A stretch of 32,930 bases of DNA from a virus (taxonomy: Duplodnaviria; Heunggongvirae; Uroviricota; Caudoviricetes). This document shows, in pieces, positions 6,861 to 12,566 of the stretch. A program made the position numbers and the translations under genes. The notes under the pieces are model-generated. The model worked only from the letters and a program-made list of their open reading frames with translations. It did no database searches and was not told where the DNA came from. How positions within the stretch are numbered: position 1 is the stretch's first letter; each line of letters begins with the position of its first letter. Location of the stretch: the IMG/VR virus record IMGVR_UViG_2690316161_000021, positions 1-32,930 of that record; one strand, written 5' to 3'.

Positions 6861-7250
6861 ATGATTGACGCTCATGACTTCACAAGATGGGTGCGCACAC
6901 AGGACACCCGTCTGGCTCCCGTTCTTCAGGGATTATTTGATCTCTACATCCGTGGTCGTGACAACAGAGCACGCACCACAAAACCGGAGAATGCAGACAC
7001 CCTTTATTTCACAGTAGACGACTGCTACCGCGTGGACTTCACACCACACGGGCTGGCGTTGCACTGCCTGACACCACACGGAGAATCACTGCTGGCGTAT
7101 TACGACTCCCCGGCCTCCGTATTTGCGGCAATGCTGGCGCATCGCACTGCTGGCGGGTGTGCCTCGCTGAGTGAATACACCGCTGAATTTAACCGCCTTT
7201 CTGCCCTCTTCTCGCAGGAGTGGCAGCGCGTGACGGGATACCAGCCATGA
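6861..7250 (+). CDS. Hypothetical early protein
   Basis: 129-aa ORF immediately upstream of gene A; its stop overlaps the A start. Confidence 0.45.
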   Translation: MIDAHDFTRWVRTQDTRLAPVLQGLFDLYIRGRDNRARTTKPENADTLYFTVDDCYRVDFTPHGLALHCLTPHGESLLAYYDSPASVFAAMLAHRTAGGCASLSEYTAEFNRLSALFSQEWQRVTGYQP

Positions 7251-10093
7251 ATGAGTTTGCATGGAGCTGGAATGAACCACGGCCAGCCATTGATCCGGCC
7301 AGATTTACGGAGCACAGGCAGGAAACTGAAACCGACCTGCAACGCGCCATCCGTTACTACCTTGAGGCAGACAAAAAGGCTCTGGAAGAACAGGAAGCGA
7401 AGGAGGAAGCCTTTTTCGCACAATCCACCGTGGGTAAAAAACTCATGGCATCCCTTGAGGAAGCCGGACAGCGTGAAAAGCTGGCACAAAGCATCATCAG
7501 CAAGCGTCAGGCAACAGAACAAGACCCGGTGGCCCGTGCTTTTGCCACACTGAAGGTGCTTCCCGTTTATCTGCGTGAACCTCTGAGCCGCCACCTCTCT
7601 TTCCTGCGCAAAAAACAGGAAGCCGATCGCCAGAAAGGCAAAAAGAGCTGGCAGGCTGAACGCTACGCGCGCGGAACCCTGCGCAAAATATTCGAACGCC
7701 TGGACCGCACCGACCACCGCTGGCTGACACCGGGTTATCGCTCCCTTGCCGGACGCGAACGCCTGGATGATTTGCTTTACCTGCCGCAGCTCAACAAGCA
7801 CCAGATACAGACGCTGGCCACCATGACGGCGGCGATGTTCAGCAGCACCTTCGAAAAACTCTGCGATGGCTTTGGCGCGACCGATGGTGAGCTGACCATG
7901 GATGTAACGCTGAAGGCGTATCAGATGCTGGCCCGCATGGCGTTACACCTGCACGCCATGCCTCCACATTATGACGCACTGACAACAGACAAAGACCGGA
8001 GGAACGAACCGGACACGGAGCTGCTGCCGGGCGCAATCCTTCGCCTGACCTGTGCGGAATGGTGGAAACGCAAACTGTGGCTGTTACGTTGCGAGTGGCG
8101 GGAAGAACAACTCCGCGCCGCCTGTCTGGTTTCCAGAAAAACATCACCCTATCTGAGCCAGGACGCGTTAAGCGAGTTTCGCGCACAGCGCGAGAAAACA
8201 CGCGATTTCCTGAAAAGTTTCATGCTGGAAAATGAAGACGGGTTCACGATTGATCTCGAGACGGTGTATTACGCGGGAGTAAGTAACCCGGTTCACCGTA
8301 AGGCAGAAATGATGGCCACCATGAAGGGGCTGGAACTTCTGGCCGAAGCCCGTGGCGACAGAGCGGTGTTTCTGACTGTCACCTGCCCGTCAAAATACCA
8401 CGCAACAACGGAGAACGGTCATCCGAATCCCAAATGGAACGGGGCCACTATGCGCGACTCCAGCGATTACCTGGTTAACACGTTTTTTGCGGCGGTCCGC
8501 AAAAAACTGAACCGCGACGGCCTGCGCTGGTATGGCATCCGCACGGTGGAGCCTCACCATGACGGCACTGTGCACTGGCATATGATGGTCTTTGCACATC
8601 CGGACGAGATTGAAACCATCGTGTCCCACGTCTGCGATATTGCCATTCAGGAAGACCGCCACGAGCTGGGCGATGACATAACTCCGCGTTTTAAGGCGGA
8701 GTACGTCGACGGCTCAAAAGGCACGCCAACCAGCTACATCGCCACCTACATCGGAAAGAACCTGGACAGCCGCGCCGTGGATGGCATCGACCCGAAAACG
8801 GGCAAGCCACGCGTTGACCACGAAACAGGTAAATCAATGGCCGAGAGCGTGGAGCGCGCCATCGGCTGGGCGCGCCTTCACCGGGTCCGTCAGTTCCAGT
8901 TCTTTGGCATCCCCTCCCGTCAGGTGTGGCGTGAACTGCGCCGCCTTGCCAGCCAGATGGCACGCAATCCGGAAGGCCCGCAACGGCTGAAGGATGACGC
9001 AATGGACGCGGTACTCGCTGCCGCTGATGCCGGATGTTTTGCCACCTACATTGAGAAACAGGGTGGCGTACTTGTTCCACGCAAAGACTACCTGATTCGC
9101 ACCGCCTACGACCTCGCAGATGAGCTGAACGATTACGGTGAACAGAGCGTACAGATTTACGGGATCTGGTCGCCGCTCATTGGGGAGTCTTCCCGCGTAT
9201 GCACGCATCCGGATAACTGGAAGCTGGTAAGACGCAAACCGGAAGCGGAAGACAGCGCCCGCGAAAATGGTTTTGACCTTCAGGGCGGCCCTGCCGCCCC
9301 TTGGACTCGGACTCGTGGCAATAACTGTCCCCGTGTACAGGAAACAGGCAACAACGGGACAGAACAGCCGGAAGAACGGCCAGCACCGTGGCCGCAGCTT
9401 CCTGACGGCGTTGAAGTAAATGAATGGATGCGCTCACTGAAACGGCACGAACGCCGGGCGCTGATGCGTTCGCTTCGTGACAAACAGGCAAAAAACAGCA
9501 GCGATGAAATGCAGAACTGGACACAGAGCCGCAAACAGCAGCGGCCTTTGCCTGATAACCACGAGTTACTCGCTAAAGAATGGCGGGAGTCTGCTGAATC
9601 TCTCGGCCTGCATATCGGTGAACAACAGATGCAGCACCTGTTACGGGGCGGCAGTCTGTACGTTGACGGCAGCATCATTGCACCGCAGGGATTTGAAATT
9701 GTACGCAAACCGGATACCCGCCCGGACAGCCGAATCACGCAGCTCTGGCAGCGTCTGAGCCGTAATCATGGCGTAAGCAGCACGGAGATCCGCCATAACC
9801 CGGTCGCCAGCTATCTGGCACAGCTGGGGGCATCAGACCCTGAAGCCGCCGCACGCCTGGCATCCACACTTCAGCAGGACCAGAACACCATGAAAACACC
9901 CGTTACCGTGCTTTCTGACATGCTGCGCGCCATCCGCGACGCAGAGCACGCACAGAGAATCAGTGAAACCACTGAACGCGCCAGCCGCAAAGCAGACCTG
10001 CTGCGGGGTGGCCTGACCAGTGGAAACAAAAAACAGACAGAAACGGGACTCACGAATCCCGTAAATGAGCAAAAAACGCGCAGCGATATATGA
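7247..10093 (+). CDS. A: Replication initiation endonuclease, P2 gpA family (rolling circle)
   Basis: About 950 aa with an HUH-type motif (HHDGTVHWHMMVF) and a tyrosine-containing region (YIATYIGKN) typical of P2 A-type initiators. The start could be 7220 or 7247; the C-terminal roughly 250 aa looks like an extension. Confidence 0.85.
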   Translation: MNEFAWSWNEPRPAIDPARFTEHRQETETDLQRAIRYYLEADKKALEEQEAKEEAFFAQSTVGKKLMASLEEAGQREKLAQSIISKRQATEQDPVARAFATLKVLPVYLREPLSRHLSFLRKKQEADRQKGKKSWQAERYARGTLRKIFERLDRTDHRWLTPGYRSLAGRERLDDLLYLPQLNKHQIQTLATMTAAMFSSTFEKLCDGFGATDGELTMDVTLKAYQMLARMALHLHAMPPHYDALTTDKDRRNEPDTELLPGAILRLTCAEWWKRKLWLLRCEWREEQLRAACLVSRKTSPYLSQDALSEFRAQREKTRDFLKSFMLENEDGFTIDLETVYYAGVSNPVHRKAEMMATMKGLELLAEARGDRAVFLTVTCPSKYHATTENGHPNPKWNGATMRDSSDYLVNTFFAAVRKKLNRDGLRWYGIRTVEPHHDGTVHWHMMVFAHPDEIETIVSHVCDIAIQEDRHELGDDITPRFKAEYVDGSKGTPTSYIATYIGKNLDSRAVDGIDPKTGKPRVDHETGKSMAESVERAIGWARLHRVRQFQFFGIPSRQVWRELRRLASQMARNPEGPQRLKDDAMDAVLAAADAGCFATYIEKQGGVLVPRKDYLIRTAYDLADELNDYGEQSVQIYGIWSPLIGESSRVCTHPDNWKLVRRKPEAEDSARENGFDLQGGPAAPWTRTRGNNCPRVQETGNNGTEQPEERPAPWPQLPDGVEVNEWMRSLKRHERRALMRSLRDKQAKNSSDEMQNWTQSRKQQRPLPDNHELLAKEWRESAESLGLHIGEQQMQHLLRGGSLYVDGSIIAPQGFEIVRKPDTRPDSRITQLWQRLSRNHGVSSTEIRHNPVASYLAQLGASDPEAAARLASTLQQDQNTMKTPVTVLSDMLRAIRDAEHAQRISETTERASRKADLLRGGLTSGNKKQTETGLTNPVNEQKTRSDI

Positions 10094-10138
10094 GGCGCGC
10101 ACAAAACAGGCAAAAACGGGATTTCAGAATCCCGTAAA
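10030..10138. repeat. Two near-identical hairpin-containing repeats straddling the gene A stop
   Basis: AAACGGGACTCACGAATCCCGTAAA at 10041-10065 and AAACGGGATTTCAGAATCCCGTAAA at 10114-10138, each with a 6-bp inverted repeat ACGGGA/TCCCGT; both are preceded by AAAACAG-CA-AAA. Confidence 0.7.
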
Positions 10139-10169
10139 CGATTAATTAATCAACATAAGGAAAACCGAC

Positions 10170-11129
10170 ATGAAAATTTACATCGACGACGGCTCCACCA
10201 ACATCAAGCTGGCATGGACTGAGAACGGCGAACGCCGCAACGCCATCAGCCCGAACAGCTTCAAGTCGGAATGGTCTGCGCCGTTCGGTGGCTCGCAGCC
10301 TGCTAACTACATGCTTGATGGCGTGCGCTATGGTTTTGATCCGGTCAGCGATCGCTTTGTCCAGACGACCGACACGCAATACCAGTACAGCGATGTGAAT
10401 GTCATTGCCATTCATCACGCGCTGGTCAAATCAGACATCACGCCACAGGAAGTGGATGTGGTTGTTACCCTGCCACTGAGCGAATATTTCGACACAAACG
10501 CACAGCCGGACATGGCCAACATCAACCGCAAAAAAGCGAACGTCATGCGCCCGGTGGAGTACCAGAACGGCGAAGCATTCACTATCCGTAACGTACGGGT
10601 TATGCCTGAATCCATTCCGGCTGGCTTTAAAGCACTGGCTGACATGAGTCCGTTTGAATCCCTGCTGATTGTGGATTTGGGCGGAACCACGCTGGATGTG
10701 GCAAAGGTTCAGGGGCAACTGGCAGGTATCAGCCAGGTGTTTTGCGATCCACACGTAGGCGTTTCTCTTATGGCCGATGCCGTACTGTCGGTGATGGCCA
10801 CTAACGGTATGCGCACCAGTCACCACATCGCCAATACCATTATCGAACATCGCCATAATGAAGCCTGGCTGCGCCAGCACATCCACAATGACGCGCATTA
10901 CGCCAGCCTGATGGCGGTTATTCGTGAAAAGGAAGAAACACTGAAACAACGCGTGATCCGCGCGCTGGCGGTTTTTTCGGGTTACGGGCGGGTGATGGTT
11001 GTCGGTGGCGGGGCGGAGATTGTGGCACCCGCTATCCGCGAAGCCTGCGGAGTTAATGCGACTTTCATCGCGGACGGGGTGCCACAGTTTGCTCTGGTTA
11101 ATGGGCTGTACGCAATGGACAAGGAGTAA
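10170..11129 (+). CDS. parM: ParM/StbA-like actin-type segregation ATPase
   Basis: 319 aa with actin-fold motifs IDDGSTNIKL, DLGGTTLD and VVGGGAE. From memory it is collinear with plasmid R1 ParM (YSDVNV, ERKKAN, VMPESIPAG); not verified by search. Confidence 0.8.
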   Translation: MKIYIDDGSTNIKLAWTENGERRNAISPNSFKSEWSAPFGGSQPANYMLDGVRYGFDPVSDRFVQTTDTQYQYSDVNVIAIHHALVKSDITPQEVDVVVTLPLSEYFDTNAQPDMANINRKKANVMRPVEYQNGEAFTIRNVRVMPESIPAGFKALADMSPFESLLIVDLGGTTLDVAKVQGQLAGISQVFCDPHVGVSLMADAVLSVMATNGMRTSHHIANTIIEHRHNEAWLRQHIHNDAHYASLMAVIREKEETLKQRVIRALAVFSGYGRVMVVGGGAEIVAPAIREACGVNATFIADGVPQFALVNGLYAMDKE

Positions 11130-11133
11130 ACCA

Positions 11134-11445
11134 ATGACGACACCAACCAGACGGATAAGTTTCTATCTGAAGCCCGCCGCCGTCAAGAACGAAGGAGAAG
11201 CATGCGCCTGGCTGGACAGCCTTACACCAGAAGCCCGCAAAAGCGGCCAACGCGTGGCTTTTCTGGCCGGGCTGGCACTTCTGAAGACGAATCCGGCAGA
11301 GGCTTACCGACTGGCCGCATGGGCTGATGATGAGATGTTACCTGTGACACAAATCAGCTCAAAAAAGTTTGAAGCACAGTCTGCACCAGTGGCTAAGATA
11401 ACCAGCCAGATGGCTGGGAATATCCGGGCGTTATTTCCTGAGTAA
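11134..11445 (+). CDS. parR: ParR/StbB-like small DNA-binding partner
   Basis: 103 aa starting 4 nt after the parM stop with AAGGAG RBS; N-terminal RRISFYLKP and LAGLAL resemble R1 ParR as I recall it, and the C-terminus ends IRALFPE. Confidence 0.6.
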   Translation: MTTPTRRISFYLKPAAVKNEGEACAWLDSLTPEARKSGQRVAFLAGLALLKTNPAEAYRLAAWADDEMLPVTQISSKKFEAQSAPVAKITSQMAGNIRALFPE

Positions 11446-11573
11446 AAGCATCTGCGCGAAAAATGCTCACGTTTATAGAGACAGTATCATTCCATTTGGC
11501 ACACTTACTTCAATAATCGATCTGTTAAACAAATAGATTGTCTATTATCTATCGATTAAAACGATCAATTATC

Positions 11574-11601
11574 TTGACAGTAATGTGCCTTTTTGTAAGA
11601 T
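11574..11601 (+). promoter_or_regulatory. Candidate sigma70 promoter for the hotspot moron gene
   Basis: TTGACA (11574-11579), 16-bp spacer, TAAGAT (11596-11601) with TG one base upstream (extended -10). Confidence 0.45.
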
Positions 11602-11735
11602 CGTTCGCATTGTGAGCGACAAGATAATTGCGCGGCATTGTCCATGCAAAACGCCCCAATAGCAGCAACTATTGGGGCGTAAAACTCGGTCGGACTCACT
11701 TAACCTGATATGCGTGCCTTCCGAAGTAAATCAAA

Positions 11736-11804
11736 ATGTGCGTCGTATATTTTATTGCTTACACGCACCTCTGTAAAGGCACGCATATTTTTCCTATGAG
11801 GTAA
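11736..11804 (+). CDS. Possible 22-aa leader peptide (MCVVYFIAYTHLCKGTHIFPMR)
   Basis: Short ORF ending 5 nt before the GTG start of the 89-aa gene and covering its RBS; it sits inside an inverted repeat. Speculative. Confidence 0.2.
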   Translation: MCVVYFIAYTHLCKGTHIFPMR

Positions 11805-11809
11805 ATAAA

Positions 11810-12079
11810 GTGCGGGCTAAAACAGGTATTTGCAAGAACCCTCATCGTTATAATCCAACATTTCTGTCTCTCCCTGAATATCAAGGACAAGAAGGTCGGC
11901 ACAAATGCGCTGCCTGTGCTTTTGAGCTAGGCATAAAAGATGCGCTTGAAGGACGCGCTATGGCTCAGAATGATTTAGTTTTAGCTAACATTCCGTTTAG
12001 CCAGGCTGGAACTGTAAGGCACAGAGATGCCTATGAAGCATATGTTCGTGGTTGGCGATTAATAAACAGCAACAATTGA
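11810..12079 (+). CDS. Hypothetical 89-aa protein (single CxxC, basic) in the A-to-cos cargo hotspot
   Basis: GTG start with GAGG RBS 8 nt upstream; followed by an intrinsic terminator; embedded in AT-rich DNA. Confidence 0.5.
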   Translation: MRAKTGICKNPHRYNPTFLSLPEYQGQEGRHKCAACAFELGIKDALEGRAMAQNDLVLANIPFSQAGTVRHRDAYEAYVRGWRLINSNN

Positions 12080-12087
12080 TACTTTTG

Positions 12088-12112
12088 AAGCGCCGATAAG
12101 GCGCTTTTTTTG
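12088..12112 (+). terminator. Intrinsic terminator after the 89-aa moron gene
   Basis: Stem AGCGCC/GGCGCT with GATAA loop followed by an 8-T run. Confidence 0.7.
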
Positions 12113-12566
12113 TTTGCACGATAGTGCACAAGTTTGCACAATTTTTTTGAACGACTTTTTGTACTTCCGGCCCGCGTGGTGGCTGGATCCGTCAAGGATC
12201 CGTACGTGCACAAAAAAACGCGTTTTTTCTGCGCGCAGGTGACGGGGGAACAGCCCGCGTTTCAGGGGGGTAAATAGCGTTCCCTTAACGATGTCGCAGC
12301 GACACGACAGAATGGCCGTATTTCTCACGCTGAGCGTGAAAAATACGTGAGGGATTCTGGTTTGATGGGGTGAAAGGTAAGGCCGTCAAAATCGCACTGA
12401 GGCGGCGAGAACATGCAGTCAGCGCAGTGGGATTGCGTAAGAATCTGACCGTCGATGATGGCAATAAGCAGGAAAGCGTCGTGAAATTATCTGACTGATA
12501 CAGGAGCTGGAGAGTCGGGGCATAAATTTTTTATGCCCCGGCGAAGCAGCAGACAAGCGAAGCGCG
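12113..12566. other. Packaging region upstream of portal gene Q; probable cos site
   Basis: Noncoding interval between the hotspot and Q, where cos lies in P2-family genomes. Contains GTTTGCAC and GGATCCGT direct repeats, the palindrome AAAAAACGCGTTTTTT, and GACGGGGGAACAGC (around 12241-12254), which resembles the recalled P2/186 cohesive-end motif GGCG.GGCGGGGAAAGCA. Confidence 0.4.

Follow-up and report, generated by a model that had tools for sequence, protein, structure and literature searches.

Two Dyad-Symmetric Repeat Units at the Left Edge of a Mobile parM-parR Cassette in a P88-Like Prophage: A Candidate ParR Binding Site

The Junction Between Gene A and parM

The window analyzed here, i.e., the whole stretch of 32,930 nucleotides in IMG/VR record IMGVR_UViG_2690316161_000021, is a P88-like Escherichia coli prophage (Xuanwuvirus, P2 family). 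Its replication gene A is followed by parM, which encodes an actin-like ATPase, and by parR, the gene for the predicted adaptor protein, and the junction between A and parM carries a 42-nt repeat unit in two copies with internal dyad symmetry (Table 1). These units form the left edge of a mobile cassette that includes both par genes, and it is likely, judging from the comparisons presented below, that they constitute a parC-like binding site for ParR, which would act as a centromere and probably also as an operator. The junction is common: bases 9400-10700 match the chromosome of E. coli O157:H7 FRIK944 with 100% identity, and the A/parM junction was found in 1373 of 5426 complete E. coli genomes (about a quarter), some of which carry up to three copies of it (9400-10700). 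Existing records annotate the cassette only as “ParM” and “partition protein,” and a literature search found no paper on the P88-type cassette, its cis site or its role.

The open reading frame (ORF) of gene A ends with a TGA at 10091-10093 and parM starts with an ATG at 10170, which leaves a gap of 76 bp. A repeat search returned the two copies of the unit with 81% identity and a start-to-start distance of 73 bp. An earlier note on this DNA, made from the letters alone, had described two 25-bp units, AAACGGGACTCACGAATCCCGTAAA at 10041-10065 and AAACGGGATTTCAGAATCCCGTAAA at 10114-10138, the first in the last codons of A and the second in the gap before parM; both the letters and the placement were borne out. 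The dyad pattern, ACGGGA-N8-TCCCGT, occurs exactly twice in the 32.9-kb window, compared with 0.04 occurrences expected from shuffles. The note had further suggested that about 70 bp of the A 3′ end had been tandemly duplicated. This is excluded because the 31-nt spacer between the units (10069-10099) is unique, without a second copy on either side, and relatives that carry A but not the cassette lack the unit altogether.

The Repeat Units Belong to the parM-parR Cassette

Assignment of the repeats to the cassette (10028-11445), as its 5′ part, and not to gene A follows from homology edges, from linkage to parMR behind other upstream genes, from the lack of repeats in A-only relatives and from co-occurrence in IMG/VR. 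In blastn comparisons with loci that carry a different upstream gene (L085 and L072), homology begins at 10028/10029, the first base of unit 1, and in comparisons with six loci that carry other downstream cargo it ends at 11445, the parR stop codon. At L085, a different A gene and an extra ORF are followed by unit 1, the spacer, unit 2, parM and parR, and unit 1 together with the spacer is annotated by PGAP as a truncated “DNA replication protein” pseudogene. At L072, a different A 3′ end is fused at the repeat start. The converse case is provided by two E. coli prophages (L086 and L087), in which A is 95-96% identical up to window positions 9977-9981 and is followed by other cargo without parMR: neither repeat nor dyad is present there, and A ends with GNSEKKK near the equivalent of position ~10030. 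P88-like A genes without parMR thus have neither copy, which favors the parC-like reading. In IMG/VR, the exact motif AAACGGGA-N8-TCCCGTAAA is followed by parM within 300 nt downstream in 109 of 115 assessable contigs; one more contig has parM on inspection, and the remaining five matches are perfect palindromes that have nothing to do with the element and lie in unrelated contigs.

At the module junction, gene A has lost its own stop codon, and its reading frame continues for about 21 codons into cassette DNA, which is the only reason for copy 1 being part of the A ORF. The cassette edge explains the alternative C-terminal tails of gene A. The proposal of the earlier note that the duplication is the scar of a cargo insertion is thereby retained in one respect, as copy 1 does sit at the module junction, but its direction was wrong, since the repeats are those of the cassette and it is A that reads into them. 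Another version of the scar is that unit 2 is the leftover 3′ end of another A gene, which was brought along with parMR, and that the palindromes are functionless. Such neutral recombination would agree with the position of the repeat start at a mosaic junction, and copy 2, in the frame equivalent to that of copy 1, encodes KTGFQNPVND (TKQAKTGFQNPVND) followed by a stop codon, which resembles an alternative A C-terminus. A hybrid unit is in fact used as the true end of A in a single-copy contig (L031/L110, IMGVR_UViG_2657245439_000011), where it encodes the terminal residues KKQTKTGFKNPVTD directly before parM. However, this state is very rare (one IMG/VR contig, compared with 241 that encode a ParM relative) and presumably arose by deletion via recombination between the two units. 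The A genes of A-only relatives end otherwise, and both units are kept at L085, where neither belongs to an intact A gene. Furthermore, the arms are conserved while the spacer and loops drift, and the two-dyad layout is retained in Hafnia, there inside a different ORF, and in Plesiomonas despite wholesale divergence (see below). A functionless scar is therefore improbable.

A parC located 3′ of parR was also considered and rejected, because the parR stop codon is the very point at which homology between cassettes ends, and beyond it lies a separate slot with variable cargo.

Table 1. Features at the junction between gene A and the parM-parR cassette (window coordinates).
Feature	Coordinates	Strand	Evidence or remark
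Replication gene A	7220..10093	+	Phage_GPA, Pfam 1.5e-129; last ~21 codons from cassette DNA
Mobile cassette (parC-like element, parM, parR)	10028..11445	+	blastn homology edges on both sides
Repeat unit 1: A-tract, dyad and GTAAAT	10027..10068	.	in the last codons of the A ORF
Dyad 1: ACGGGA-CTCACGAA-TCCCGT	10043..10062	.	exact pattern match
Central spacer, 31 nt	10069..10099	.	unduplicated; holds the A stop codon, TGA (10091-10093)
Repeat unit 2, intergenic	10100..10141	.	repeat search
Dyad 2: ACGGGA-TTTCAGAA-TCCCGT	10116..10135	.	GGG begins 52 nt 5′ of the parM ATG
Conserved leader with TTAATCAA and Shine-Dalgarno sequence AAGGA (10157-10161)	10142..10169	+	5 of 28 columns variable in the E. 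coli clade
parM, actin-like ATPase, 319 aa	10170..11129	+	Pfam StbA_N 9.7e-81 and ParM C-terminal domain 3e-68; PHROG 691, partition protein
parR, adaptor, 103 aa	11134..11445	+	Pfam Plasmid_stab_B 2.4e-23; directly 3′ of parM

Conservation of the Two-Dyad Layout

Within the E. coli clade (52 distinct sequences), the dyad arms and the A-tract are conserved; the 22 nt that comprise the A-tract and left arm of unit 1 contain just two variable columns. The most variable segments are the 8-nt dyad centers and the 31-nt spacer, in which 19 of the 31 columns vary.

Distant ParM relatives were taken from the protein database and their contigs then examined. In this way, P2-like prophages of Hafnia (L098) and Plesiomonas (L101) were obtained, in which ParM is 62% identical to that of the window and parM-parR lies between A and the portal gene. 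Neither a genome-contig scan nor a plasmid search returned ParM intermediates between 97% and 51% identity, and the contig of P0018 (ParM 80%) ends before the region upstream of parM. In Hafnia and Plesiomonas, the DNA upstream of parM has diverged almost wholly, and yet the layout is retained. The Plesiomonas dyads (GCGGGACAACAAAAACCCG and GCGGGACAACACTAACCCAC) are spaced 72 bp apart, with the first inside the last codons of A, and the Hafnia dyads (TGGGATTGAGGAAACCCA and CGGGTTCATTAAATCCCA), spaced 73 bp apart, both fall within an unrelated ORF of 167 aa or at its end. In each of the three genera, the pattern GGG-N10-CCC starts 52-59 and 125-131 nt 5′ of the parM ATG with a spacing of 72-73 bp; two such sites 70-76 bp apart occurred in ≤5e-5 of trials (20,000 dinucleotide-preserving shuffles per genus). 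Across the 15 distinct dyads of these genera, the central GG/CC pairs are the only ones that never vary, and the invariant columns of the dyad are asymmetric (G7 G8 … A17 C19 C20 … A24 A25). Part of the leader (TTAATCAA…ATAAGG) is found in the Hafnia and Plesiomonas cassettes as well.

Conservation of half-site identity, spacing and helical phasing is the signature of a double-stranded protein-binding site. Whether the units might be recognized by a protein other than ParR, e.g., a host nucleoid protein or another phage regulator, and be linked to the cassette by chance, has to be considered, as dyad symmetry and helical phasing would suit any dimeric DNA-binding protein and the tie to ParR is not direct. 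Among phage regulators, Ogr-type proteins of P2 act on late-promoter dyads of the form TGT-N12-ACA. By inspection, the dyads of the window fit neither this form nor the consensus of integration host factor (IHF). Moreover, the sites co-occur only with parMR, on backbones with different A genes and in three genera, and ParR is the sole DNA-binding protein encoded in the module. There is thus but a slim chance that the units serve an unrelated protein.

A different kind of explanation places the function in RNA: hairpins in the early transcript between A and parM could act as an attenuator, which was one of the proposals of the earlier note, or as a processing site or 3′ stabilizer, and set the level or survival of the parMR message. 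The E. coli units indeed fold as moderately stable hairpins of 6-8 bp (-9.0 and -10.7 kcal/mol; z -2.5 and -3.0), some natural dyad variants are compatible with G-U pairing on the plus strand, and the hairpins sit between two co-oriented genes. However, neither hairpin is followed by a U-run on the plus strand, but by AAA, for which reason a plus-strand attenuator or terminator was rejected. The equivalents in Hafnia and Plesiomonas reach only -4.6 to -4.9 kcal/mol, three of these four with z of -0.2 to -1.0, and the distal Plesiomonas site (z -2.4) forms a stem of just 4 bp. Hairpin stability is not maintained in these genera, which do retain the GGG-N10-CCC geometry with its spacing of 72-73 bp. 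Outer or inner stem pairs are broken in 3-6 of the 15 distinct dyads, and covariation (0.148, compared with 0.109 ± 0.028 in shuffles) is not significant, as 54 of 500 shuffles scored at least as high. An Rfam search gave no match at E ≤ 1. Attenuation of read-through from A is accordingly not supported, and a role of the units as RNA hairpins in any of these forms appears very improbable. Hardly credible is the idea that the units are intrinsic terminators for minus-strand (antisense) transcripts entering A from the cargo side: T-rich tails follow both hairpins on that strand and were flagged as terminator-like in a scan (ACGGGATTCTGAAATCCCGT TTTTGCCTGT and ACGGGATTCGTGAGTCCCGT TTCTGTCTGT), but this T-run merely mirrors the A-tract of the opposite strand and is missing after the weak Hafnia and Plesiomonas hairpins, parM and parR lie on the plus strand, and no minus-strand gene or promoter-like site is found just downstream.

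ParM, ParR and a Candidate parC

The arrangement of the module is that of a type II ParMRC system, with an actin-like ATPase (46-52% identical to plasmid ParM/StbA), ParR directly downstream, and repeated DNA 5′ of parM that travels with both genes. By homology, ParR is a ribbon-helix-helix adaptor: a profile of phage and plasmid ParRs that includes the window protein matches the structure of pB171 ParR (PDB 2JD3, E 8.8e-15), whereas the single ParR sequence gave no match against PDB. In E. coli-clade ParRs, an alignment of 20 database sequences shows no variation in R6-P14 (RRISFYLKP), the stretch that aligns with the beginning of the solved pB171 ParR, and F10Y in a single fetched locus is the one substitution seen there. 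More broadly, of 36 distinct full-length ParRs from fetched E. coli-clade loci, all but four, which differ at a single site each, have the same first 18 residues (MTTPTRRISFYLKPAAVK); the database alignment shows slightly more variation, at residues 3, 5, 15 and 18. In the same E. coli-clade loci the dyad cores are constant, and TRR[IV]SFYL is kept in the ParRs of Hafnia and Plesiomonas. The C-terminal tail is conserved as well (N-I-x-x-x-F-P, typically NIRALFPE). Apart from these conserved ends, ParR is more variable than its partner: in the prophages of L002-L081, which otherwise hardly differ, ParM is 98-100% identical but ParR only 45-100%, with the divergence mostly at residues ~65-95 (linker), which looks like mosaic or diversifying evolution of the linker in E. 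coli prophages. A defense-system identity of ParM/ParR, in what is a P2 cargo hotspot, was dropped, as there was no PADLOC match.

Based on these observations, ParR dimers might recognize the partly symmetric GGG-N10-CCC dyads of this cassette, which occupies the variable cargo region between gene A and cos. As the dyads are 73 bp, or about seven helical turns, apart, both would lie on the same face of the DNA, and two bound sites that bracket an unbound core of 31 bp, as in R1 parC, could form a nucleoprotein complex. The conserved ParR tail (NIRALFPE) might then link this complex to ParM filaments. Given that no promoter is recognizable, transcription of parMR probably depends on early-operon transcripts that continue through A, and if so, ParR sitting on the A/parM junction could in addition limit such read-through.

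Placing the centromere/operator at 10028-10141 would define the full mobile module as 10028-11445 and provide a precise target for asking what role actin-like segregation machinery plays in an integrating phage. Of the proposals in the earlier note, the parC-like ParR site is the one that has gained ground, since the units lie at the module edge, co-travel with parMR behind different A genes and keep their layout in Hafnia and Plesiomonas; the binding itself was only suggested by these findings.

Several points weigh against this interpretation. Contact between ParR and the units is deduced throughout from sequence. That both the ParR N-terminus and the dyads are invariant agrees with recognition but does not amount to true covariation, and the AlphaFold (AF2) monomer model of ParR (pLDDT, the model's per-residue confidence score, 57) was too poor for a fold search. 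There are only two units, each with internal dyad symmetry, whereas characterized ParRs act on direct-repeat arrays. AAAC-type iterons are significantly enriched in E. coli only (P 0.003; 0.11 in Hafnia and 0.88 in Plesiomonas), and an R1-style AAAC iteron array was therefore dropped as a conserved feature. A promoter scan of 9500-10170 found no σ70-like promoter (at least 9 of 12 matches) on the plus strand, and the best promoter-like match by eye, ATGAGC-N16-TATATG, reaches only 7 of 12. An autoregulatory operator role is unsupported because, at this threshold, the scan placed no such promoter between the units or 3′ of them.

Comparison With Characterized Partition Systems

The best-known relative of the putative site, parC of plasmid R1, spans 159 bp and consists of a 39-bp core, which contains the par promoter, with a set of five 11-bp iterons on each side; each iteron set is bound by ParR separately (PMC2241845). 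A position directly 5′ of parM is common to the parC sites of R1, pB171 and Clostridium perfringens plasmids (PMC2241845; PMC9426499). The phage element shares this position, abutting the Shine-Dalgarno sequence, with CATAAGGA in both, and, like R1 parC, it is bipartite, with repeated DNA on either side of a core of ~30-40 bp, and A-rich on the parM coding strand. At the protein level, R1 ParM is 46% and R1 ParR 25% identical to the phage proteins. R1-type iterons (AACCCAAAAAC) loosely resemble the right half-dyad plus A-run of the phage (AATCCCGTAAAC; AAACCCAAAAAC in Hafnia), which is a resemblance by eye and no test. The differences are nevertheless considerable: two arrays of about five tandem 11-bp direct iterons are not found in the phage, which has two 42-nt units only, each with an internal GGG-N10-CCC dyad, around a core of 31 bp. 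The phage element also contains no promoter at the scan threshold, and it shares DNA with the 3′ end of a replication gene, in the genome of an integrating phage.

All characterized ParRs bind direct repeats, in arrays of 10-20-bp repeats (PMC9426499). A small number of repeats has a precedent in pB171, whose ParR is described as binding just two 10-bp direct repeats 5′ of parM (PMC9426499). By that description, the two sites are nonetheless set apart, as the pB171 repeats are short and direct and the phage units are dyad-symmetric and 73 bp apart. If the phage units are indeed bound by ParR, they would represent a ParR site with dyad symmetry, in contrast to the direct repeats reported for characterized ParRs (PMC9426499).

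Among prophages, the closest functional precedent for such a system is AlpA/AlpC/alpS of the Corynebacterium glutamicum prophage CGP3. It likewise combines a prophage actin-like filament with a DNA adaptor that acts on repeats 5′ of its own operon, and AlpAC is required for efficient phage DNA replication, not for plasmid inheritance (PMC4446434). alpS differs, however, in that its repeats are short (TTAAnnG) and number 24; host and phage type are also different, and there is no close relationship between the proteins. A bolder, doubtful version of our interpretation is that the phage element is a minimal centromere of new architecture, in which ParR would act on inverted half-sites seven helical turns apart, within a promoter-less cassette that rides on the phage early operon. 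If so, the system might act on excised, replicating phage genomes during lytic growth and position or separate them, like AlpAC or PhuZ, instead of serving plasmid inheritance.

P2-like phages of Serratia and Enterobacter carry parMR cassettes in the same slot (after A and before the portal gene), with the same gene order, and the lead-in GGCAAAAACGGGA is common to them and E. coli repeat 2. The two short dyads are replaced in these cassettes by one long inverted repeat, CGGGAACGAAATAGAAAAAT-N28-ATTTTTCTATTTCGTTCCC, which would be a second architecture of the presumed ParR site. In L102 (3370-3460), L103 (3380-3450), L105 and L107, it was seen as 19-nt arms with a spacer of ~28 nt and a small GCCGTTTAAACGGC palindrome before parM. 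The ParR N-terminus in these phages reads NRKISFYL, compared with TRRISFYL in the window, and the ATTTTTCT motif of the inverted repeat resembles iterons found 5′ of IncL/M and IncK parM, where ParR starts with NRKCSFYI. A correspondence between the type of ParR N-terminus and the layout of the site is suggested by these alignments.

The Cargo Region and Neighboring Features

Within the junction itself, a 15-codon ORF (10090-10137, MRRAQNRQKRDFRIP followed by a stop codon) shares part of its start codon, ATG, with the A stop codon (ATGA) and terminates within dyad 2. Its frame is maintained in the E. coli variants inspected, but the ORF is probably fortuitous.

The slot after gene A is a cargo hotspot (L086, L087, L097, L102, L103). 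Instead of or beside parMR, it can be occupied by an AAA ATPase with an S8 peptidase, minus-strand hypothetical genes, DUF3800, HicAB or a KAP NTPase. A second, independent cargo slot (11446-12114) directly follows the parR stop codon in the window and contains an 89-aa ORF (11810-12079) that belongs to PHROG 3941 (function unknown), with no Pfam or PADLOC match. A σ70-like promoter, TTGACA-16-TAAGAT, lies 5′ of this ORF at 11574-11601 and is bracketed by a perfect 11-bp inverted repeat (CAATTATCTTG; 11566-11576 and 11620-11630), and a terminator-like hairpin is located at 12087-12107. Between the cargo region and the portal gene lie a near-perfect palindrome of 31 bp (CGTATTTCTCACGCT-g-AGCGTGAAAAATACG, 12317-12347) and, at 12516-12540, a GC-rich hairpin flanked on either side by A/T runs (CGGGGCATAAA-TTT-TTTATGCCCCG); these probably represent parts of the cos region and a bidirectional terminator.

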